Assembly: GCF_044324785.1 (NCBI RefSeq)
Contig: NZ_CP172127.1
Length of the DNA: 64,000 nt
Source: Escherichia coli
GTDB taxonomy: Bacteria; Pseudomonadota; Gammaproteobacteria; Enterobacterales; Enterobacteriaceae
Strand: one strand, 5' to 3'
Each line of letters opens with the position of its first letter. Positions within the stretch are counted from its first letter, which is position 1. Shown in pieces: positions 11,456-46,520 of the stretch. The translations under genes and the position numbers were made by a program. Under the pieces are notes generated by a model that had not been told where the DNA came from, searched no databases, and worked only from the letters and a program-made list of their open reading frames with translations.

Positions 11456-11473
11456 GGCTTTGTTGAATAAATC
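11456..11473. repeat. IS903 terminal inverted repeat (transposase-distal end)
   Basis: GGCTTTGTTGAATAAATC, perfect reverse complement of 12495-12512. Confidence 0.9.
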
Positions 11474-11511
11474 AGATTTCGGGTAAGTCTCCCCCGTAGC
11501 GGGTTGTGTTT

Positions 11512-12435
11512 TCAGGCAATACGCACGCTTTCAGGCATACCTGCTTTCGTCATTTTGTTCAGCGCTCGTACCAGGGCCATAGCCTCCGCAACCTGACCAT
11601 CGTAGTCACGCAGCGTCAGTGAACCCCCGAACAGCTGTTTTACCCGGTACATCGCCGTTTCCGCTATCGAGCGACGGTTGTAATCTGTTGTCCATTTCCA
11701 CCGCGCATTACTCCCGGTCATTCGCTGATTAGCCACTGCACGGTTACGGTCTGCATATTCACCGGGCCAGTAACCCGCACCTTTTCGGGGAGGGATAAGC
11801 GCGCTGATTTTCTTACGCCGCAGTTCATCGTGACATAGCCGGGTATCGTAAGCGCCATCGGCGGCGGCTGACCTGATTTTCCGGTGGGTTTGCCGGATTA
11901 ACCCGGGGAAGGCCTCTGAGTCCGTAACGTTGTTCAGCGACAGGTCAGCGCAGATGATTTCATGTGTTTTACTGTCAACGGCGAGATGCAGCTTACGCCA
12001 GATACGGCGGCGTTCCTGGCCATGCTTTTTGACTTTCCACTCGCCTTCACCGAAGACCTTCAGCCCGGTGGAATCAATTACCAGGTGTGCGATTTCACCC
12101 CGGGTGGGCGTTTTGAAACTGACATTAACCGACTTTGCCCGCCTGCTGACACAGCTGTAATCCGGGCAGCGTAGCGGAACGTTCATCAGAGAAAAAATGG
12201 AATCAATAAAGCCCTGCGCAGCCCGCAGGGTCAGCCTGAATACGCGTTTAATGACCAGCACAGTAGTGATGGCAAGGTCAGAATAGCGCTGAGGTCTGCC
12301 TCGTGAAGAAGGTGTTGCTGACTCATACCAGGCCTGAATAGCTTCATCATCCAGCCAGAAAGTTATGGAGCCACGGTTGATGAGGGCTTTATTGTAGGTG
12401 GGCCAGTTGGTGATTTTGAACTTTTGCTTTGCCAC
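11512..12435 (-). CDS. IS903 transposase (DDE, IS5 family)
   Basis: Translation ...AKQKFKITNWPTYNKALINRGSITFWLDDEAIQAWYE...MPESVRIA matches the IS903 transposase; likely GTG start at 12435 gives 307 aa, whereas the track ORF begins at an upstream in-frame ATG at 12480. Confidence 0.9.
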   Translation of the reverse strand: MAKQKFKITNWPTYNKALINRGSITFWLDDEAIQAWYESATPSSRGRPQRYSDLAITTVLVIKRVFRLTLRAAQGFIDSIFSLMNVPLRCPDYSCVSRRAKSVNVSFKTPTRGEIAHLVIDSTGLKVFGEGEWKVKKHGQERRRIWRKLHLAVDSKTHEIICADLSLNNVTDSEAFPGLIRQTHRKIRSAAADGAYDTRLCHDELRRKKISALIPPRKGAGYWPGEYADRNRAVANQRMTGSNARWKWTTDYNRRSIAETAMYRVKQLFGGSLTLRDYDGQVAEAMALVRALNKMTKAGMPESVRIA

Positions 12436-12494
12436 GGAACGGTCTGCGTTGTCGGGAAGATACGTGATCTGATCCTTCAACTCAGCAAAAGTTC

Positions 12495-12512
12495 GATTTA
12501 TTCAACAAAGCC
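12495..12512. repeat. IS903 terminal inverted repeat (transposase-proximal end)
   Basis: GATTTATTCAACAAAGCC, reverse complement of 11456-11473. Confidence 0.9.
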
Positions 12513-33092: not shown

Positions 33093-34433
33093 TCAGAACG
33101 CGTAGTTAAAGTTAGTACCGAACAGCCAGGCTTTACCTTCTGACTCGAAGGAATAAGCTGCCGGTCCTTCACCTTCAGTAAACTTCACATTCTGACCGTG
33201 CATATAAGATGCACCAACGTCAATGGATGCATCTTCATTAAATGCGTAGGTTAACCCAGCACTTAACCACAAGCGATCCTGGTCAGGAATAGAAATAGAA
33301 CGTTTATCGGCCGGAACTGGGCTATCGTCATAGGCGATACCGGTACGGAAGGTCCAGTTTTTATCGTAATAGTAGGTTGTACCCAACGCGATACGATATG
33401 CGTCACGGAATCCTTCATCTTTATAGAACAGAGTCTGACCACTATCGCCTTTCGCTTTCAACTCCTGGAACTGGCTCCAACTGGTATAGGCCATGCTGTA
33501 GTGAATTGCCCACTGTGGCGCAACACGGTTATAACCAGAAATCTCCCACATCTCAGGTAAATTCAGCGTCAAGGACCCATTTTGGGTTGCACCCATTGTG
33601 CCATACGGTAAACCCATGCTACCCAAAATGTTGTTCAGATTTGGGTTAATGGAACTTTTGTAATCCCCTTCGAAGTCGATTTTAACTTCAGAACGATAGG
33701 TTAGGCCCCAACGGTTGTCTTTATCCAGTTCATAAAGAATACCCGCGTTCCAGCCAAAGCCCCATTCGTCACCTTTCAGATGAGCAATTTGAGAGTCCGG
33801 GGTATTAATACCATTGGTTAGTGAAGCGGGTACACCTTGGGCAATCAACTGTTGAGACAACAAAGGCCCCAGCGAACCGGCGTAACGCTCAATTTTTGCC
33901 TTAGCGTATACAGCATCAAAACCAAGACCAAAACTCCAGCTATTGTTAAGGCGATAGGCTCCGCTAAGGTTAAGGTTGATTGTTTGCAGATCGGTTTTAC
34001 CGCCATAGATTCCAGCAGCGTAGTTATCATTAAATTCCGTGGCCAGACCATAGTTCGAGGTAATAGAAGCCCCCCAACCAAACTGATCGTTAATAGGTGC
34101 TACGAAATGTAGATTAGGTACCCACGCAGTTGGTGCAATATTATCTGCATCAGCACGCTGGCCCGTTAAATCGGAACGCCCAGAAATATCTACATCCGGA
34201 TCAATATAAACCGCACCCGCAGAAAATGTCGGGCGGTCAAACATGGTAATCAATGCGGGGTTACGGCTAACGTTACCTGCATCATCGGCAATTGCACCTT
34301 CCCCTGAATAAGCCCGGCCCAGGCCAGAGGAAGAAAATTCGTTTAACTGAAAGCCTGCCGACCAGGCCTGGGTGGAGATAAGTGCCACTGCGACTGCGAG
34401 AGCAGACTTTGTAAACAGGGTTTTCTGGCTCAT
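33093..34433 (-). CDS. fadL: long-chain fatty acid outer membrane transporter
   Basis: Track ORF 33093-34439; the FadL N-terminus [29 protein letters not shown] puts the start at 34433; ends with the beta-barrel C-terminal motif NFNYAF. Confidence 0.95.
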
Positions 34434-35269: not shown

Positions 35270-36580
35270 ATGGGTCAGGTTTTACCGCTGGTTACCCGCC
35301 AGGGCGATCGTATCGCCATTGTTAGCGGTTTACGTACGCCTTTTGCCCGCCAGGCGACGGCTTTTCATGGCATTCCCGCGGTTGATTTAGGGAAGATGGT
35401 GGTAGGCGAACTGCTGGCACGCGGCGAAATTCCCGCCGAAGTGATTGAACAACTGGTCTTTGGTCAGGTCGTACAAATGCCGGAAGCCCCCAACATTGCG
35501 CGTGAAATTGTTCTCGGCACCGGAATGAATGTGCATACCGATGCTTACAGCGTCAGCCGCGCTTGCGCTACCAGTTTCCAGGCGGTTGCAAACGTCGCAG
35601 AAAGCCTGATGGCGGGAACTATTCGCGCGGGGATTGCCGGTGGGGCCGATTCCTCTTCCGTATTGCCAATTGGCGTCAGTAAAAAACTGGCGCGCGTGCT
35701 GGTTGATGTCAACAAAGCTCGAACCATGAGCCAGCGCCTGAAACTCTTCTCTCGCCTGCGTTTGCGCGACTTAATGCCCGTACCGCCTGCGGTAGCAGAA
35801 TATTCTACTGGCTTACGGATGGGCGACACCGCCGAACAAATGGCGAAAACCTACGGTATTACTCGCGAACAGCAAGATGCATTAGCGCACCGTTCGCATC
35901 AGCGAGCCGCTCAGGCCTGGTCAGACGGTAAACTCAAAGAAGAGGTGATGACTGCCTTTATCCCTCCTTATAAACAACCGCTTGCCGAAGACAACAATAT
36001 TCGCGGTAATTCCTCGCTTGCTGATTACGCAAAGTTGCGTCCGGCGTTTGATCGTAAACACGGGACGGTAACGGCAGCAAACAGTACGCCGCTGACCGAT
36101 GGCGCAGCGGCGGTGATCCTGATGACCGAATCGCGGGCGAAAGAATTAGGGCTGGTACCGCTGGGGTATCTGCGCAGTTACGCATTTACTGCGATAGATG
36201 TCTGGCAGGACATGTTGCTCGGTCCGGCCTGGTCAACGCCGCTGGCGCTGGAACGTGCCGGTTTGACAATGAGCGATCTGACATTGATCGATATGCACGA
36301 AGCCTTTGCAGCTCAGACACTGGCGAATATTCAGTTGCTGGGTAGCGAACGTTTTGCTCGTGATGTACTGGGGCGTGCACATGCCACTGGCGAAGTGGAC
36401 GATAGCAAATTTAACGTGCTTGGCGGTTCGATTGCTTACGGGCATCCCTTCGCGGCGACCGGCGCGCGGATGATTACCCAGACATTGCATGAACTTCGCC
36501 GTCGCGGCGGTGGATTTGGATTAGTGACCGCCTGTGCTGCGGGTGGGCTTGGCGCGGCAATGGTTGTGGAGGCGGAATAA
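35270..36580 (+). CDS. fadI: 3-ketoacyl-CoA thiolase (anaerobic beta-oxidation)
   Basis: 436-aa thiolase ORF recognised as FadI (YfcY). Confidence 0.95.
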
Positions 36581-38724
36581 TGGAAATGGCATCAGCGTTT
36601 ACCCTTAATGTCCGTCTGGACAACATTGCTGTTATCACCATCGACGTACCGGGTGAGAAAATGAATACCCTGAAGGCGGAGTTTGCCTCGCAGGTGCGCG
36701 CCATTATTAAACAACTCCGCGAAAATAAAGATCTGCGCGGTGTGGTGTTTATCTCCGCGAAACCGGACAACTTTATCGCTGGTGCAGACATCAACATGAT
36801 CGGCAACTGCAAAACGGCGCAAGAAGCGGAAGCACTGGCGCGGCAGGGTCAACAGTTAATGGCGGAGATTCATGCTTTGCCCGTTCCGGTTATCGCGGCT
36901 ATTCATGGCGCTTGCCTGGGCGGTGGGCTGGAGTTGGCGCTGGCGTGCCACGGTCGCGTGTGTACTGATGATCCTAAAACGGTGCTCGGTTTGCCTGAAG
37001 TACAACTTGGATTAATACCCGGTTCAGGCGGCACCCAGCGTTTACCGCGCCTGATAGGTGTCAGCACAGCATTAGAGATGATCCTCACTGGAAAACAACT
37101 TCGGGCGAAACAGGCATTAAAGCTGGGGCTGGTGGATGACGTCGTTCCGCAATCAATTTTACTGGAAGCCGCTGTTGAGCTGGCAAAGCAGGATCGTCCA
37201 TCTTCACGCCCTCTACCTGTACGCGAGCGTATTCTGGCGGGGCCGTTAGGTCGTGCGCTGCTGTTCAAAATGGTCGGCAAGAAAACAGAACACAAAACTC
37301 AGGGTAACTATCCGGCGACAGAACGCATCCTGGAGGTTGTCGAAACGGGATTAGCGCAGGGCACCAGTAGCGGCTATGACGCTGAAGCCCGTGCTTTTGG
37401 CGAACTGGCGATGACGCCGCAATCGCAGGCGCTGCGTAGTATCTTTTTTGCCAGTACGGACGTGAAGAAAGATCCTGGCAGTGATGCGCCGCCTGCGCCA
37501 TTAAACAGCGTGGGAATTTTAGGTGGTGGCTTGATGGGCGGCGGTATTGCTTACGTCACTGCTTGTAAAGCGGGGCTTCCGGTCAGAATTAAAGATATCA
37601 ACCCGCAGGGCATAAATCATGCGCTGAAGTACAGTTGGGATCAGCTGGAGGGCAAAGTTCGCCGTCGTCATCTCAAAGCCAGCGAACGTGACAGACAGCT
37701 GGCATTAATCTCCGGAACGACGGACTATCGCGGCTTTGCCCATCGCGATCTGATTATTGAAGCGGTGTTTGAAAATCTCGAATTAAAACAACAGATGGTG
37801 GCGGAAGTGGAGAAAAATTGCGCCGCTCATACCATCTTTGCTTCGAACACGTCATCTTTACCGATTGGCGATATCGCCGCTCACGCCGCGCGACCTGAGC
37901 AAGTTATTGGCCTGCATTTCTTCAGTCCGGTGGAAAAAATGCCGCTGGTGGAGATTATTCCTCATGCGGGGACATCGGCGCAAACCATCGCTACCACAGT
38001 AAAACTGGCGAAAAAACAGGGTAAAACGCCAATTGTCGTGCGTGACAAAGCCGGGTTTTACGTCAATCGCATTTTAGCGCCTTACATTAATGAAGCTATC
38101 CGCATGTTGACCGAAGGTGAACGGGTAGAGCACATTGATGCCGCGCTGGTGAAATTTGGTTTTCCGGTAGGCCCAATCCAACTTTTGGATGAGGTAGGAA
38201 TCGACACCGGGACTAAAATTATTCCTGTACTGGAAGCCGCTTATGGAGAACGTTTTAGCGCGCCTGCAAATGTTGTTTCTTCAATTTTGAACGACGATCG
38301 CAAAGGCAGAAAAAATGGCCGGGGTTTCTATCTTTATGGTCAGAAAGGGCGTAAAAGCAAAAAACAGGTCGATCCCGCCATTTACCCGCTGATTGGCACA
38401 CAAGGGCAGGGGCGACTCTCCGCACCGCAGGTAGCTGAACGGTGTGTGATGTTGATGCTGAATGAAGCAGTACGTTGTCTGGACGAGCAGGTTATCCGTA
38501 GCGTGCGTGACGGAGATATTGGCGCGGTATTTGGCATTGGTTTTCCGCCATTTCTCGGTGGTCCGTTCCGCTACATCGATTCTCTCGGTGCGGGTGAAGT
38601 GGTTGCAATAATGCAACGACTGGCCACGCAGTATGGTTCCCGTTTTACCCCTTGCGAGCGTTTAGTCGAGATGAGCAAGCGTGGGGAAAGTTTTTGGAAA
38701 ACAACTGCAACTGACCTGCAATAA
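36580..38724 (+). CDS. fadJ: fatty acid oxidation complex alpha subunit (enoyl-CoA hydratase / 3-hydroxyacyl-CoA dehydrogenase)
   Basis: 714-aa ORF recognised as FadJ (YfcX); start overlaps the fadI stop. Confidence 0.95.
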
Positions 38725-38926: not shown

Positions 38927-39412
38927 ATGCAAGTTTTTATCATGCGTCACGGCGACGCAGCCCTCGATGCCGCCAGTGATTCGGTTCGTCCTCTGACTAC
39001 TAACGGTTGTGATGAATCTCGCCTGATGGCGAACTGGCTGAAAGGTCAAAAAGTGGAAATCGAACGCGTTCTGGTGAGCCCGTTCCTGCGAGCCGAGCAA
39101 ACACTGGAAGAAGTAGGGGATTGTCTGAACCTGCCTTCCAGTGCAGAAGTTCTGCCGGAGTTAACGCCCTGCGGCGATGTTGGTCTGGTCAGTGCCTATT
39201 TACAGGCGTTGACCAATGAAGGTGTTGCTTCGGTACTGGTGATCTCCCACTTACCCTTAGTCGGGTATCTGGTTGCTGAGTTATGTCCGGGCGAAACGCC
39301 GCCTATGTTTACCACCTCGGCCATTGCCAGCGTAACGCTTGATGAAAGCGGAAACGGCACATTCAACTGGCAGATGAGCCCATGTAATCTGAAGATGGCA
39401 AAGGCGATTTAA
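38927..39412 (+). CDS. sixA: phosphohistidine phosphatase SixA
   Basis: 161-aa ORF MQVFIMRHGDA... with the RHG phosphatase motif; recognised as SixA. Confidence 0.93.
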   Translation: MQVFIMRHGDAALDAASDSVRPLTTNGCDESRLMANWLKGQKVEIERVLVSPFLRAEQTLEEVGDCLNLPSSAEVLPELTPCGDVGLVSAYLQALTNEGVASVLVISHLPLVGYLVAELCPGETPPMFTTSAIASVTLDESGNGTFNWQMSPCNLKMAKAI

Positions 39413-39423
39413 TACGCATGCAC

Positions 39424-39460
39424 AAGGCCCGCTGGCGTAAGCTATCGGGCCTTTATTTTT
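39424..39460 (+). terminator. intrinsic terminator downstream of sixA
   Basis: AAGGCCCG (39424-39431), loop, CGGGCCTT (39446-39453), then TATTTTT. Confidence 0.75.
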
Positions 39461-40072
39461 CTGGCAATGTTGAATTTATTCAATCTTATTGTACTAATAA
39501 TGATCCGCTTGTGATCGAATGGTCTTTATTTTATACGGCATGACGCTTTTATTCGTGAGAATTTACATATTGAAAGAGAATTTACTTTTATTCATAAATT
39601 ATTTTTTCTGGAAGCATTTTTAGGTAAATAATGACTAAGGTGAAAATATTATTGGGTCTTGATTTTATATTAATTATAGTGTTTTAATATTATATCGTTG
39701 CGAAATTAATATCACAAGATAGTCATTGCCATGTGATTGTTTTTGACTTTGATTTATTCACTGTATTTTTGCATTTGCCGTTTTTTTGAACTCATTCTTC
39801 ATAACTGAGATGAAAAATTTCAGTAATTATTATTCCTGCCTATTAATTAAGTATTTCTAACTTTGAATGTTAGAAAATCTAAATTGCTTCAGTCATATTA
39901 AAATATCAATATGTTCGGCACGCCAAAGAATATTGATTCAAGGGACCTGTTTTTTCAGGATCTGAAAATATGTTCATTGGCTGGTTAAAAGTCGCTGCAA
40001 AAAATTGAAGAAGTTCTGCGTCAATATTTCAGTTGGCTTATATTCTAATTATTTATGATTTAAGGACAAATA

Positions 40073-40639
40073 ATGAGTAAGTTTGTAAAAGCAGCAGTTG
40101 CCACGGCAATGCTTATGGGGGCGCTGACTTCAGCATCAGTCGTTGCCGCAGGGAATAACGGTACAGTGAGATTTTACGGCACAATTGAAGACTCCCCGTG
40201 CTCAATTGTTCCTGACGATCATAAACTGGAAGTGGATATGGGCAGCATCGGTACGGGTTCTTTAACCGGCGGCAAAAAAACCACACCAAAAGATTTCCAG
40301 ATTCGTTTACAGGACTGTAATTTCAATACAGAAACGACAATGTCCACCACATTTACCGGTAATCCATACTCCACTAAAACAGATAACTATTCTTTGTCTA
40401 ACATGGATAATGGAACTGAAATTCCAAACGTTAGCCTGGTTATCGGTGACCAGCACGGTACAGGTTATGCTATGGGAGCAGAGATTAAGCAACCTATCGT
40501 GAAGGACAGTTCAACGGGAAAAGGCAAGCCTAAACAAACTCTGAACTTTAAAGCATGGTTAGTGGGTGAAACGGATGCTGTAACACCAACACCGGCACCG
40601 TTTGAAACGCTGACGACGTTCCAAATCACGTATCTCTAA
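40073..40639 (+). CDS. yfcV: fimbrial major subunit-like protein (Yfc chaperone-usher fimbriae)
   Basis: 188-aa ORF with signal peptide and pilin-like C-terminus; first gene of the yfc operon. Confidence 0.85.
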   Translation: MSKFVKAAVATAMLMGALTSASVVAAGNNGTVRFYGTIEDSPCSIVPDDHKLEVDMGSIGTGSLTGGKKTTPKDFQIRLQDCNFNTETTMSTTFTGNPYSTKTDNYSLSNMDNGTEIPNVSLVIGDQHGTGYAMGAEIKQPIVKDSSTGKGKPKQTLNFKAWLVGETDAVTPTPAPFETLTTFQITYL

Positions 40640-40710
40640 TGTATTTCCCCCATAGCTGCAAAGTTATGGGGTTTATAACTACCAAATAACTAAATTATAA
40701 AAAATCATGG

Positions 40711-43362
40711 ATGGATACGCCGATGCCAGAACATTCTTTTCTCCGTTTACGGGGGCTTTCGTGGTGGATTGCTCTGGCAATTTCTGGAAGTCCATTTAAT
40801 GCCCTGGCAGACGATACCATTCAGTTTGATGGCCGATTTCTTGATTTAAAAGGCAATACCAAAATTGATTTGGGCCGTTTTTCGCAAAAAGGCTATGTAG
40901 AACCGGGAAAATATAACTTACGCGTTCATGTAAATAATCAGCCGTTACCTGACGACTACGATATCTACTGGTACGCAACTGAAAACGATCCGAATAAATC
41001 ATATGCCTGCTTATCGCCAGAGCTGGTTGCCCAGTTTGGTCTGAAGGAAGATATTGCGAAGAATTTGCAATGGATCCGCGATGGTCAGTGTCTGAATACG
41101 GCACTTTTAGCAGGTACAGAAATTAGCGGCGATTTAGGCCAGTCTGCACTCCTTGTTTCTGTACCGCAGGCTTATCTGGAATATACCGACAGCGAGTGGG
41201 ACCCGCCTTCGCGCTGGGATGACGGTATCCCTGGGCTTATTGCCGATTACAGTATCAACGCGCAAACCCGACATGAAAATGGGGGTGATGACACCAACGA
41301 CATCAGCGGTAATGGTACGGTCGGCGTTAACGTTGGGCCGTGGCGCTTACGAGCTGACTGGCAGAGCGATTATCAGCATACCCGCAGTAACGATGACGGC
41401 GACACTGACGATAGCGGTACGCAAAAAAACTGGGAGTGGAGTCGTTACTACGCCTGGCGCGCCTTGCCGTCATTAAAAGCCAAACTTTCGCTGGGCGAAG
41501 ATTACCTCAACTCCGATATTTTTGATGGCTTCAGTTACATTGGCGGCAGCATCAGTACCGATGATCAAATGTTACCGCCAAACCTGCGCGGCTACGCACC
41601 CGATATTTCAGGCGTTGCACACACTACTGCTAAAGTGACTGTAACCCAAATGGGCCGTGTCATTTACGAAACTCAGGTGCCCGCAGGTCCATTCCGCATC
41701 CAGGATATTGGCGACTCCGTCTCTGGCACGCTGCATGTCCGCATTGAAGAACAAAACGGCCAGGTACAGGAATACGACGTCAGCACGGCGTCCATGCCGT
41801 TCCTGACTCGCCCCGGCCAGGTGCGTTACAAAGTGACAATGGGGCGTCCACAAAACTGGGACCATCAGGTTGCAGGTAGCTTCTTCTCGGGCGGCGAGGC
41901 ATCGTGGGGGATTGCCAATGGCTGGTCGCTCTACGGCGGTGCGTTAGCCGATGAAAACTACCAGTCGGCGGCGCTGGGCCTCGGTCGTGACCTGGCGCTG
42001 CTAGGCGCGTTAGCGTTTGATGTCACTCACTCTCGTGTTCAACTCGACGATAACAGCGTGTATGGCAACAAAACGCTGGACGGCAACTCTTATCGCGTCA
42101 GCTATGCCAAAGATTTTGATGAACTCAACAGTCGGGTGACGTTTGCTGGATACCGCTTCTCTGAAAAAAACTACATGACCATGAGCGAGTATCTGGATGC
42201 GAACGACGACGACCGGGCGCGCACCGGTAACGACAAAGAGATGTATACGGTCACCTATAACCAGAACTTCACGGATGCGCGCGTTTCGGTCTATCTCAAC
42301 TATTCCCACCATACCTACTGGGATCGCCAGGATCAGACCAACTACAACATGATGCTTTCTCATTATTTCAATTTAGGAAGCCTTCGCAACCTGAGCGTTT
42401 CTCTGACCGGTTATCGCTACGAATACGATAAAAGTGCCGACAAGGGTGTTTATCTGTCCTTAAGTTTGCCGTGGGGCGACAACAGCACCATCAGTTACAA
42501 CGGCAACTATGGCAGCGGTGCCGACAGCAATCAGGTGAGCCTGTACCACCGCATTGATGACGCCAGCCACTACACGGTAAGCGCCGGAACCAGCGAAAAC
42601 CACAGCAGCGTGGATGGCTACTACAGCCACGATGGTACTCTGGCAAAAGTTGATCTCAGTGCCAACTACCATGAAGGGCAATACACCTCAGCGGGGATCT
42701 CTTTACAGGGCGGGGCAACGTTGACCGCTCACGGCGGGGCGCTGCATCGTACACAAAACATGGGCGGTACACGTCTGTTAATCGACGCTGATGGCGTTGC
42801 TAATGTGCCGGTTGAAGGTAATGGTTCCGCCGTTTATACCAACATGTTCGGCAAAGCGGTGGTGGCTGATGTGAATGATTACTACCGCAACCAGGCTTAT
42901 ATCGATTTGAACAAACTGCCGGAAAACGCCGAAGCCACGAAATCAGTGGTTCAGGCAACGCTGACGGAAGGCGCTATTGGCTACCGTAAATTTGCGGTGA
43001 TCAGCGGTGAGAAGGCGATGGCAGTGCTGCGCTTGCAGGATGGCAGCCATCCGCCATTTGGGGCGGAAGTGAAAAACGATAATCAACAACAAGTTGGATT
43101 AGTTGATGACGAAGGTAATGTTTATCTGGCAGGCGTTAAACCGGGTGAACATATGACCGTTTTCTGGGAGGGTGAATCTCACTGCGATATCAGCCTGCCA
43201 GACCCGTTACCGAATGACCTGTTCAATGGCTTGTTGTTGCCATGCCAGCAAAAGGGGGGAAGTGCTCCCGTCATACCGCATGATATTCAACCCGTCATTC
43301 AGGAGCAGACACAACAGGTGACACCAATGGAACCGCCGATGTCTGTTTCATCGAACCAATAA
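40711..43362 (+). CDS. yfcU: fimbrial outer membrane usher, apparently intact
   Basis: Uninterrupted 883-aa ORF of usher size; true start may be the internal Met at codon 5. Confidence 0.85.
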   Translation: MDTPMPEHSFLRLRGLSWWIALAISGSPFNALADDTIQFDGRFLDLKGNTKIDLGRFSQKGYVEPGKYNLRVHVNNQPLPDDYDIYWYATENDPNKSYACLSPELVAQFGLKEDIAKNLQWIRDGQCLNTALLAGTEISGDLGQSALLVSVPQAYLEYTDSEWDPPSRWDDGIPGLIADYSINAQTRHENGGDDTNDISGNGTVGVNVGPWRLRADWQSDYQHTRSNDDGDTDDSGTQKNWEWSRYYAWRALPSLKAKLSLGEDYLNSDIFDGFSYIGGSISTDDQMLPPNLRGYAPDISGVAHTTAKVTVTQMGRVIYETQVPAGPFRIQDIGDSVSGTLHVRIEEQNGQVQEYDVSTASMPFLTRPGQVRYKVTMGRPQNWDHQVAGSFFSGGEASWGIANGWSLYGGALADENYQSAALGLGRDLALLGALAFDVTHSRVQLDDNSVYGNKTLDGNSYRVSYAKDFDELNSRVTFAGYRFSEKNYMTMSEYLDANDDDRARTGNDKEMYTVTYNQNFTDARVSVYLNYSHHTYWDRQDQTNYNMMLSHYFNLGSLRNLSVSLTGYRYEYDKSADKGVYLSLSLPWGDNSTISYNGNYGSGADSNQVSLYHRIDDASHYTVSAGTSENHSSVDGYYSHDGTLAKVDLSANYHEGQYTSAGISLQGGATLTAHGGALHRTQNMGGTRLLIDADGVANVPVEGNGSAVYTNMFGKAVVADVNDYYRNQAYIDLNKLPENAEATKSVVQATLTEGAIGYRKFAVISGEKAMAVLRLQDGSHPPFGAEVKNDNQQQVGLVDDEGNVYLAGVKPGEHMTVFWEGESHCDISLPDPLPNDLFNGLLLPCQQKGGSAPVIPHDIQPVIQEQTQQVTPMEPPMSVSSNQ

Positions 43363-43381: not shown

Positions 43382-44131
43382 ATGACTAAATATCTCTCTG
43401 CCAAAACATTGACAACGGTACTGTCGTTACTGGCAGCAACGGTAAGTTTTTCTACCCAGGCGTCAGTAACGCCCGATCGTACTCGCCTGATTTTTAATGA
43501 AAGCGATAAATCCATCAGCGTGACGCTGCGTAATAACGACCCAAAACTGCCTTATCTGGCGCAAAGCTGGATTGAAGATGAAAAGGGCGTCAAAATCAGC
43601 TCGCCGCTGGCGGTATTGCCGCCCGTACAGCGCATTGATGCAATGATGAATGGTCAGGTAAAAATTCAGGGCCTGCCGGATATTCATAAATTACCTGCCG
43701 ATCGGGAATCGATGTTCTATTTCAACGTGCGCGAAATTCCGCCGAAATCGAACAAATCCAACACGCTACAAATCGCTCTTCAGACGCGTATCAAACTTTT
43801 CTGGCGACCGAAAGCTCTGGAAAAAAACACCACGCAAAACCCGTGGCAGCATAAAGTGACCTTAACCCGCAACGGTCAGGAATTTACTGTCAATAACCCG
43901 ACGCCGTATTACGTCATTTTCAGTAATGCCAGCGCACAGAAAAATGGCAATCCGGCAGCCGGTTTCTCGCCAATAGTGATGTCGCCGAAAACCTCTGCAC
44001 CGCTGAATGTGAAGATGGGTAGCGTGCCGGTACTGACCTATGTCAACGACTATGGCGCTCGGATGCCGCTCTTTTTCACCTGCAACGGCAATAGTTGCCA
44101 GGTTGATGAAGAGCAGAGCCGCAAAGGCTGA
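43382..44131 (+). CDS. yfcS: periplasmic fimbrial chaperone (PapD-like)
   Basis: 249-aa ORF with signal peptide; position after the usher gene. Confidence 0.88.
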   Translation: MTKYLSAKTLTTVLSLLAATVSFSTQASVTPDRTRLIFNESDKSISVTLRNNDPKLPYLAQSWIEDEKGVKISSPLAVLPPVQRIDAMMNGQVKIQGLPDIHKLPADRESMFYFNVREIPPKSNKSNTLQIALQTRIKLFWRPKALEKNTTQNPWQHKVTLTRNGQEFTVNNPTPYYVIFSNASAQKNGNPAAGFSPIVMSPKTSAPLNVKMGSVPVLTYVNDYGARMPLFFTCNGNSCQVDEEQSRKG

Positions 44132-44146: not shown

Positions 44147-44638
44147 ATGAAACGACTACTTTTGACCGGGCTGGGAGGAGTGCTGCTTACGGGCAGTGCT
44201 CTTGCCGGTGAAACGAAAAGTGTGCCATTGACATTGCGCGTACTGGTAGACCCACCACCTCCTTGTACCGTAAAAGGCAGTAACGTCGATTTTGGTGATG
44301 TGATCATCAAAAAAATCAATGGTACTGAATATCGCAAAGATGCAGGTTATACCCTGAACTGTGCCAATAGCCTGAGCGATGACCTTCAGATGCAGTTTAA
44401 GGGCACAACCACCACGATCAATGGCGAAACGGTGTTAAGCACGGGAATTACCGGGTTTGGCATTCGTATTGAAAATGCAGCAGATAACTCTCTGTTTGCG
44501 ATTGGCGACAATACCTGGACTCCATTTAGCGTCAGTAGCCAGCCACAACTAAAAGCAGTGCCAGTCAAACAGAATGGCGTGACGCTGACAGGCGCGCAGT
44601 TTAACGCCAGCATGACAATGGTGGTGGATTACCAATGA
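44147..44638 (+). CDS. yfcR: fimbrial minor subunit-like protein
   Basis: 163-aa secreted ORF with C-terminal VDYQ pilin-like strand. Confidence 0.8.
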   Translation: MKRLLLTGLGGVLLTGSALAGETKSVPLTLRVLVDPPPPCTVKGSNVDFGDVIIKKINGTEYRKDAGYTLNCANSLSDDLQMQFKGTTTTINGETVLSTGITGFGIRIENAADNSLFAIGDNTWTPFSVSSQPQLKAVPVKQNGVTLTGAQFNASMTMVVDYQ

Positions 44639-45114
44639 AACGACTCTCGTTAATTTTATTATCCGCTTTTTGCACCATAACGCATGCCGCACCGGAAGAT
44701 ATCACCTTCACGGGTACGCTGATCGAACCTCCGGTCTGCACCGTCAGCAATGGTGATGATATTGAGATCCAGTTTATCGACGTCATTATCGACAATATTG
44801 ACGGGGTTAATTACCGCAAAGATGTTCCGTACCAGATAACGTGTGACCCTGATATTACCGATGACGCCTGGGTAATGACGCTAACCTGGACCGGTACACA
44901 GACCAGCTATAACGATGCGGCGATTCAGACGGATGTGACGGGTTTAGGGATTGAACTCCAGCAAAACGGTCAGCCCTTTAAGCTGAATACCCCGCTTAAC
45001 GTGACACCCGCCAACCTGCCGAAGTTGAAGGCCGCACCTGTAAAAGCTTCCGATGCCACGCTGACTGACGGTAACTTTTCCGCTTACGCCACATTGCAGG
45101 TGGATTATCAATGA
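44635..45114 (+). CDS. yfcQ: fimbrial minor subunit-like protein
   Basis: 159-aa secreted ORF ending in LQVDYQ; 4-bp overlap with yfcR. Confidence 0.8.
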   Translation: MKRLSLILLSAFCTITHAAPEDITFTGTLIEPPVCTVSNGDDIEIQFIDVIIDNIDGVNYRKDVPYQITCDPDITDDAWVMTLTWTGTQTSYNDAAIQTDVTGLGIELQQNGQPFKLNTPLNVTPANLPKLKAAPVKASDATLTDGNFSAYATLQVDYQ

Positions 45115-45656
45115 ACAAACTGAAGAAATATCAACGTATCAGGGTGCATACCCTTCTGTTAGGAGGCGTGCTGGTGCTGGCAAGTCATTCAGCTCTGGCT
45201 GCTAATAATCTGCATTTTTACGGCAACCTGATGAGCAAAACCTGTACTCCGGTGGAACAGGCTGGAACGTTGGCAGAGGTGCAGTTTGCGAATATTAGCC
45301 ACAAAGATTTGATGGTGCGCGGTCAGTCCGAGCGTGTACCGGTGGTTTTTCGCCTGAAAGATTGCCGCGGGCCAGCGCAGTACAGCGTAAAAGTTACCCT
45401 GACCGGAACAGAAGACAGTGGACAACCGGGGTTCCTCGCTCTGGATGGTACCTCTGGCGCACAGGGCGTAGGCATTGGTATGGAAACTACTGATGGTACT
45501 GCTGTTGCTATTAATAACACGACGGGGGTGACCTTTGTGCTGAATGATGGCAATAACAGTCTTAATTTCAGAGCATGGTTACAGGCAAAAGAGGGTCGTG
45601 AAGTAACGCCCGGTGATTTTACCGCCCAGTTAACCGCAACGTTTGAGTATATTTAA
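45111..45656 (+). CDS. yfcP: fimbrial subunit-like protein
   Basis: 181-aa secreted ORF; 4-bp overlap with yfcQ. Confidence 0.8.
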   Translation: MNKLKKYQRIRVHTLLLGGVLVLASHSALAANNLHFYGNLMSKTCTPVEQAGTLAEVQFANISHKDLMVRGQSERVPVVFRLKDCRGPAQYSVKVTLTGTEDSGQPGFLALDGTSGAQGVGIGMETTDGTAVAINNTTGVTFVLNDGNNSLNFRAWLQAKEGREVTPGDFTAQLTATFEYI

Positions 45657-46520
45657 ATGAAAAAAATACGCTATTTTTGGGGCTTGCTGATATTGCTCAT
45701 TGTCAGTACCGGAGCACAGGCGTCGGTTTATGTCGCAACAATGTATACACCGGTAGGGTATGCAGGCCACACTACGAAGGTAGTTTATTATCTTGATGTT
45801 CTTACCCCCGATAGCGTCAATCATGGTATTTATGCGACACCCGGTACCTACGGTGCGGTCATGGGGTGGTTAGATTTGCAAAGCTGGACGGGGCCTGGTC
45901 CTGCACCATCATTAAAGGTCATATCGATGACGGAGATATCCAAATCATCTTGCCCGGGGCTTGCAGAGTATGACAATGGTGCACAAAGGACGATCTGGAC
46001 GTGTTATGAGATGCAAATTGAAGTCTGGAAAGAAGACACTAACGTTCATGGCTGCCCGTGGCTGGTATCGACACATGGAGACAGCATTGATCGTCTTGAT
46101 CCCGGTCCGGGAACCTATTCCGGACGCACAGTCAGTAACTCTTCTTGTCCACCTATACCGTTAGGGCCTTATGATGTCTCCTGGAATGAAAGTCGGGTTG
46201 TGCGTGATAAGACGTTAGCGCTCCAGTCTACCGGCGGGATAATTGAAAAAACGCTCTCCACCTACCTGATGAAAGACGGCAAACTGTGTGACGGCAGCAA
46301 ATTTGGTGATACTGACGATCGTGGTGCTTATTGTCGTTGGGTGTCGCAGATGCTCACCTTCACCTCATCGGGCTGTGACAATGCCAAAGTGACGGTAACA
46401 CCAAATCGTCACCCCATTACCGACAAAGAGCTTCATGATATGGTGCTTCGCGTGGATACCACCTCGCGGCAACCTATTGATTCTACCTGTCGATTCCAGT
46501 ACGTACTGAATATGCTGTAG
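45657..46520 (+). CDS. yfcO: fimbrial tip adhesin-like protein (putative)
   Basis: 287-aa secreted, Cys-containing ORF, last gene of the cluster; adhesin role is inferred from position only. Confidence 0.7.
   Translation: MKKIRYFWGLLILLIVSTGAQASVYVATMYTPVGYAGHTTKVVYYLDVLTPDSVNHGIYATPGTYGAVMGWLDLQSWTGPGPAPSLKVISMTEISKSSCPGLAEYDNGAQRTIWTCYEMQIEVWKEDTNVHGCPWLVSTHGDSIDRLDPGPGTYSGRTVSNSSCPPIPLGPYDVSWNESRVVRDKTLALQSTGGIIEKTLSTYLMKDGKLCDGSKFGDTDDRGAYCRWVSQMLTFTSSGCDNAKVTVTPNRHPITDKELHDMVLRVDTTSRQPIDSTCRFQYVLNML

Follow-up and report, generated by a model that had tools for sequence, protein, structure and literature searches.

The sixA–yfcV spacer of Escherichia coli is long, AT-rich and lies directly upstream of a chaperone–usher fimbrial operon, which raises the question of what this DNA does: does it hold the operon silent, switch it between ON and OFF, encode an RNA or a small protein, or merely fill the space? 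We addressed this question in a 64,000-nt stretch of an E. coli genome (contig NZ_CP172127.1 of assembly GCF_044324785.1), hereafter called the window. Our preferred reading, to which we assign a probability of about 0.7, is that region 39461–40072 controls transcription of the Yfc (π-clade) fimbrial operon, a core-associated operon that is normally silent, and that the region is silenced by H-NS.

Gene order and base composition around the spacer

We identified the locus as the Yfc (π-clade) chaperone–usher operon at sixA–smrB from its synteny, which runs fadJ–sixA–[major subunit, usher, chaperone, three minor subunits, YfcO-family adhesin]–smrB. On the plus strand, fadJ (36580–38724) and sixA (38927–39412; annotated as sixA in strain N3, and 94–100% identical to K-12) precede the spacer. 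It is followed by yfcV (40073–40639), encoding the 188-aa major fimbrial subunit (Pfam Fimbrial, E = 1.6e-17), and by the gene of the 883-aa usher (40711–43362; Pfam Usher/PapC, E = 2.9e-188). The chaperone gene (43382–44131), the three minor subunit genes (44147–45656) and the StfH/YfcO-family adhesin gene (45657–46520), all on the same strand, were assigned from the N3 annotation; smrB lies beyond the adhesin gene on the opposite strand. The set of fimbrial genes downstream of the spacer makes up a complete operon. N3 is the complete genome nearest to the window, with a spacer identity of 99.8%.

Directly past sixA, on the plus strand, we observed an intrinsic terminator (39424–39460), in which a GC-rich hairpin runs into UUUAUUUUU (fold −20.8 kcal/mol, z = −2.98). 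A simple terminator consensus scan missed it; the alignment showed that its stem, GCCCG...CGGGC, is kept in all four allele types of the spacer described below. This terminator probably insulates yfc against read-through from sixA.

The initial annotation had described the sixA–yfcV intergenic region as long and AT-rich, and the measurements agree: the spacer is 660 bp at 29.5% G+C, and the 612 bp that remain past the sixA hairpin and U-run (39461–40072) have 27.8% G+C against 48.9% for the window. Equally low values occurred at just 0.06% of the 612-bp positions of the 64-kb window, every one of which overlaps 39461–40072. Among the genes annotated in the near-identical strain N3, counted from 30.4 kb up to the window end, sixA–yfcV is also the longest spacer. 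As the G+C content is 52.7% in sixA, 44.8% in yfcV and 51.7% in the usher gene, it is the spacer, and not the operon, that is the compositional outlier. What marks an H-NS-silenced region or promoter island by composition is a stretch of 300 bp or more, much poorer in G+C than the genome as a whole, in front of a gene with poor expression. Region 39461–40072 has this composition, the low expression being documented for other alleles only.

Second to it in AT content is region 31113–33000 of the window (∼32% G+C), which covers an mlaA/yfdF-like spacer and a hypothetical gene on the minus strand (31686–32756; 356 aa, Asn/Asp-rich) with ∼140-bp internal repeats (32163–32301 and 32358–32493, ∼78% identical). 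The yfdF/mlaA spacer of K-12 is likewise a listed H-NS-bound promoter island.

Probable silencing, candidate promoter and conserved blocks

For the orthologous spacer of K-12, silencing has already been documented. This spacer is listed, with an island of 489 bp, among the 78 'promoter islands' of MG1655 (Panyukov & Ozoline 2013, PMC3661553). RNA polymerase binds to islands of this kind, little full-length RNA comes from them, and H-NS occupies them; for the sixA/yfcV island, H-NS binding was recorded in the ChIP data of both Kahramanoglou and Oshima (PMC3661553). The K-12 allele has the density that defines an island with PlatProm, namely at least 8 predicted start points per 100 bp over at least 300 bp. 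Genomic SELEX gave K-12 yfcV a constitutive RpoD promoter, TTGAAA-17-TATAGT, assigned by sequence and not from a mapped start site, and H-NS was flagged at the same spacer (Shimada et al. 2014, PMC3946193); an RpoS holoenzyme SELEX peak also lies in the K-12 yfcV spacer (Shimada et al. 2017, PMC5493296). Yfc has been classified as core-associated and cryptic (Wurpel et al., PMC3559732), and the cryptic chaperone–usher fimbriae of commensals are H-NS-repressed (Korea et al. 2010, as cited in PMC3559732). The cryptic operons of Korea et al. 2010 (yad, yeh, sfm, ybg, ycb, yra and yfc), as that work is summarized, are functional, unexpressed core-genome fimbriae that likewise have an AT-rich upstream region.

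Two regulators are known to raise yfcV. Induction of BolA does so in K-12, and overproduction of the PapB-family protein TosR in CFT073 increased yfcV by 5.2 log2, while the other genes of the operon did not rise. Directly past the yfcV stop codon, on the plus strand, we found a hairpin followed by a U-rich stretch (40648–40671; fold −16.5 kcal/mol, z = −3.20), which is probably an intercistronic attenuator or mRNA stabiliser setting the ratio of major subunit to usher. This reading agrees with the rise of yfcV alone under TosR in CFT073.

We then compared the window with the K-12 island. Both occupy the orthologous position upstream of the same operon and in the same gene order, with spacers of similar length (680 bp in K-12 against 660 bp) and G+C content (31.9% against 29.5%), and they have conserved blocks in common, including a TATAGT −10 element and a ribosome-binding-site block. 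However, the window carries another allele type, about 50–67% identical to the K-12 allele (in 300-bp bins), and its −35 element is weaker (TTGGGT instead of TTGAAA). The proposal of the initial annotation that nucleoid proteins such as H-NS hold this operon silent therefore stands from the literature for the K-12 ortholog, the allele to which the published H-NS and RNA polymerase binding and the crypticity refer. For the window's allele, divergent though more AT-rich, we infer the same silencing by analogy, from orthology and conserved composition. Despite being largely unalignable, the four spacer types of E. coli and five further Escherichia/Pseudocitrobacter loci all keep a low G+C content (26–32%).

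Motif counts were of little help in this respect. Matches to the H-NS consensus (TCGATAAATT) were 2.2–2.6-fold denser in the spacer than in the rest of the window, and A/T tracts were also enriched relative to the window, but neither were in excess over dinucleotide-preserving shuffles; TpA counts were above those of the window and not above those of the shuffles. A simple consensus scan returned 5 promoter-like sites, compared with 4.1 ± 2.4 in shuffles. Being equal to the shuffles, the counts of H-NS motifs, A/T tracts and promoter sites add nothing beyond composition.

Within the spacer, the alignment with the K-12 yfcV promoter and a pattern match placed a candidate sigma-70 promoter, TTGGGT-17-TATAGT, at 39652–39680 on the plus strand. 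It is the positional counterpart of the K-12 promoter at the aligned place; its −10 element ends 392 bp before the yfcV ATG, and the K-12 promoter ends 383 bp before it. The candidate −35 is weak (3/6), and the TATAGT −10 is not kept in the alignment of the EDL933 and CFT073 types. The invariant runs among nine window-type alleles are 39651–39726 and 40046–40113; the former, of 76 bp, is the longest and contains the candidate promoter. Over the four allele types, the mean column identity was 0.46, with a peak of 0.65 at 39645–39695 overlapping this invariant block. Two further blocks stood out across types. The first, TTCAnTGGCTGG.TA.AAA at 39966–39998, is common to all four allele types, which do not otherwise align (identity 0.74), and is a candidate for a proximal promoter or for the site of a regulator. 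The second is the 39-bp AAGGA ribosome-binding-site block on the plus strand (40034–40072), which is near-identical in all alleles and in other species (cross-type identity 0.91, with the peak at 40034–40075, and 91–95% identical even in Pseudocitrobacter).

A palindromic cluster at 39857–39881, TTCTAAC-N7-GTTAGAA overlapping TTAGA-N3-TCTAA, was detected as an inverted repeat (fold z = −3.26). Its stem arms are invariant in 9/9 window-type alleles, the sole change being one loop base in W13-16, and the palindrome is only partly kept across allele types. It may act as an operator, or else as a hairpin in the RNA. We also considered TTAGAAAATCTAA as an RcsB-box-like site and set this reading aside; other allele types do not conserve it.

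These elements can be assembled into a working model. Transcription of sixA would end at the 39424–39460 hairpin, leaving an AT-rich tract of ∼610 bp open to RNA polymerase binding. H-NS, probably with StpA, would nucleate on this tract and then polymerise over it, and its coverage would keep the promoter(s) unproductive in laboratory conditions. Expression would then need an anti-silencer competing on the AT-rich DNA, such as BolA or a PapB-family protein like TosR. As far as sequence alone can place the start of yfcV transcription, the main promoter would most likely be TTGGGT-17-TATAGT at 39652–39680, giving a 5′ UTR of ∼385 nt; alternatively, a proximal start may lie near the conserved block 39966–39998.

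A 5′ UTR of this length invites another explanation, that the spacer is an unannotated small RNA or small protein gene, or acts mainly post-transcriptionally as a long structured leader. The position of the candidate promoter would suit such a role, the fold of the putative 404-nt leader is mildly more stable than those of shuffles (z = −2.16), the 39857–39881 hairpin is a local structure of low z score, and small ORFs persist within the allele type. However, searching Rfam 15 at a permissive E-value found no family at its gathering score in the spacer, and the sole match (18.7 bits against a gathering score of 39) fell on the sixA terminator; the hairpin, as noted, is at most partly kept across types. 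The longest mechanical ORFs, of 41, 34, 32 and 25 aa, overlap one another in different frames, and within the allele type they show frameshifts, start-codon loss and mostly non-synonymous substitutions. None was found in other allele types, and none had a Pfam match above threshold. The earlier statement that the region contains no ORF is thus essentially right, and we consider a function as small RNA, small protein or mainly post-transcriptional leader unlikely.

Search for phase variation of the control region

The initial annotation had also suggested that the region may be phase-variable. One form of this idea is a fimS-like promoter flipped by a tyrosine recombinase, which would turn Yfc ON or OFF. 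The elements fimS (type 1 fimbriae) and ipuS (UpaE) are likewise AT-rich, several hundred base pairs long and located upstream of an adhesin gene; the related strain N3 encodes the ipuA/ipuB invertases ∼30 kb away; and imperfect inverted repeats, 75–82% complementary, flank ∼440 bp of the spacer (39587–39617 and 40047–40074). These repeats, however, are AT-rich; the best one spans 17 nt at 82%, and one of the arms runs into the ribosome-binding site. A search for inverted and direct repeats in the spacer found short AT-rich matches only, and tblastn with IpuA and IpuB found no invertase homologue in the 64-kb window, which also lacks the ipu island.

The comparison of the spacer among E. coli genomes was the more direct examination. 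In 633 of 634 genomes with the window allele, one match, collinear throughout, took in 80% or more of the spacer, a coverage that an inversion shorter than ∼130 bp could slip past; the nine aligned window-type sequences were collinear end to end. No invertible-element signature was seen. In comparison with fimS and ipuS, the yfc spacer has no perfect flanking inverted repeats and no adjacent recombinase, and no inverted copies were present in 633 genomes: neither the two orientations nor the near-perfect repeats and nearby tyrosine recombinase of a fimS-type switch were found. We regard such a switch as extremely improbable.

At the ipu site itself, the window has dsdC almost directly joined to tRNA-Arg (29046–29159). 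Between these two genes, N3 has ∼24.6 kb with ipuA/ipuB, a P4-like satellite prophage and the gene of the phase-variable autotransporter UpaE; the window has none of these.

Slipped-strand switching found no basis in the sequence either. Tandem Repeats Finder detected no tandem repeats in the spacer, and no slipped-strand repeat tract was seen in the promoter or 5′ coding region, where just 1–4-nt length differences occur in short A/T runs.

The other form of the idea is an epigenetic switch of the Pap type, in which Dam methylation and Lrp act on two GATC sites together with PapI/PapB-like regulators. Yfc belongs to the π-clade like Pap; the pap regulatory region (papI–papB, GATC-I/II, Lrp, H-NS) is also AT-rich; the yfc spacer has three GATC sites (39502, 39513 and 39959); TosR, of the PapB family, induces yfcV in CFT073; and H-NS silencing with PapB-family anti-silencing is plausible here too. 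But the three sites are 11 bp and 446 bp apart, and not ∼102 bp as in a Pap-type pair. The yfcV-proximal one, 39959, is lost in 6/9 window-type alleles, and the CFT073-type spacer is without any GATC. Nor is there a papI/papB-like ORF upstream of yfcV. With neither the regulator genes nor a conserved GATC pair, a Pap-type switch appears very unlikely. On the collinearity, the missing invertases and tandem repeats, and the GATC pattern, the proposed phase-variable control was not borne out, and we retain H-NS silencing as the preferred reading.

Allele types and exchange of the yfc cassette

To describe the divergence of the spacer, we followed its identity to K-12, EDL933 and CFT073 along the locus. 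Identity falls sharply at ∼39410, past sixA, and recovers at smrB (∼46800). Inside this block it is 50–82%, while the flanks are 94–100% identical to K-12. The usher and chaperone genes are the best-conserved parts of the block, and the spacer, yfcV and the tip-subunit genes diverge most; the YfcV protein is 66–73% identical to the K-12, EDL933 and CFT073 alleles. Judged by this profile, the spacer together with the whole operon is a divergent allelic cassette.

Each spacer type was then searched against 5,426 complete E. coli genomes at a coverage of at least 80%. The K-12 type was present in 3,073 genomes, the CFT073/Nissle/ST131 type in 1,206, the window type, which includes E2348/69 and an ST69 strain, in 633 and the EDL933 type in 429, so that the four types together account for 5,341 genomes (98%). 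All four are 566–680 bp long with 26–32% G+C. Low G+C spacers (28–32%) were also observed in E. whittamii, two Escherichia sp., the divergent 'E. coli' E69 and Pseudocitrobacter, as measured over 600 bp upstream, of which just 167 bp were present in Pseudocitrobacter. This cross-species scan, with one genome per species, covered seven loci, two of them with almost no upstream DNA; it suffices to show conserved composition and exchange of the cassette, but is too small for covariation or fine footprints.

Transfer between lineages was visible in Escherichia sp. E1V33, where fadJ is ∼91% identical to that of EDL933, whereas sixA, the spacer, yfcV and the usher gene are 95–100% identical; its spacer is of the EDL933 type (98.5% identity). 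This difference indicates that the cassette, including the spacer, moves between lineages by recombination. The E. whittamii spacer is a mosaic, with the proximal 168 bp 99.4% identical to the EDL933 type and a distal part that matches at 70–78% in patches and is otherwise unmatched. A 2.2-kb contig of a 'Collinsella sp.' MAG (JAIJJM010000567.1) carries the 3′ end of E. coli sixA, a window-type spacer (95%) and yfcV (97%); it is almost certainly a mis-binned E. coli fragment.

Two other divergent segments were noted in the window. Region 33000–34200, comprising the 3′ end of fadL and the downstream spacer, is 64–82% identical to K-12, EDL933 and N3 and 86–95% to CFT073, which marks it as another recombination mosaic, adjoining the conserved fadI–fadJ. 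A ∼1,057-bp insertion (11456–12512), absent from CFT073, contains a 322-aa transposase ORF on the minus strand (11512–12480), which we take to be IS5/IS903-family-like. It lies in the first codons of frc (formyl-CoA transferase), the 9 bp by which its flanks overlap would fit a target-site duplication, and frc is probably disrupted.

Exchange of whole cassettes allows the view that the spacer is low-G+C filler, brought in by horizontal acquisition and without a dedicated regulatory role. The diversity of the spacer among the nine window-type alleles (π = 0.035), above that of the adjacent coding DNA (0.022 and 0.012), agrees with this view. Yet the operon genes have 45–52% G+C and the spacer alone 28%, every allele keeps the length and the low G+C, and discrete blocks are invariant or conserved across types. 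We find the filler explanation quite improbable.

A further reading goes beyond H-NS silencing: the yfc locus with its control region may be an old multi-allelic cassette. At least four haplotypes, found throughout E. coli and exchanged with other lineages of the genus, would then have kept in common just their composition and a few short islands (39651–39726, 39966–39998 and 40034–40072), and these islands would mark either the site of a dedicated regulator or a long 5′ UTR with a regulatory role. We put this forward tentatively, as possible but doubtful. If it is true, diversifying or balancing selection, both on adhesin specificity and on its expression, would lie behind the diversity of haplotypes.

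Replacement of a regulatory spacer is a known process, in which 'switched' intergenic regions amount to horizontal regulatory switching. At sixA–smrB, E. coli W and O157:H7 have a different π-type cluster (PMC3032704), which resembles the situation described here in that divergent cassettes occupy one chromosomal site and the spacer is replaced along with the genes. To that record the present data add that four spacer types make up 98% of complete genomes and that the transfer extends across Escherichia lineages. The census of the control regions and their exchange across lineages are only mildly new, as an instance of known cassette and regulatory-region replacement. The control region itself is ordinary in kind, being a textbook-type AT-rich fimbrial promoter region with probable H-NS-type silencing, of which the K-12 version has already been catalogued.

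The finding bears on how yfcV is used and studied. This gene is a widely used UPEC marker, and the marker reflects one of four cassette types with wholly different control regions. As the cassette types differ in these regions, what is known of regulation from K-12 or CFT073 may not hold for strains carrying the window allele, such as E2348/69, ST69 and N3. The islands conserved across types offer specific targets for finding what switches Yfc on.
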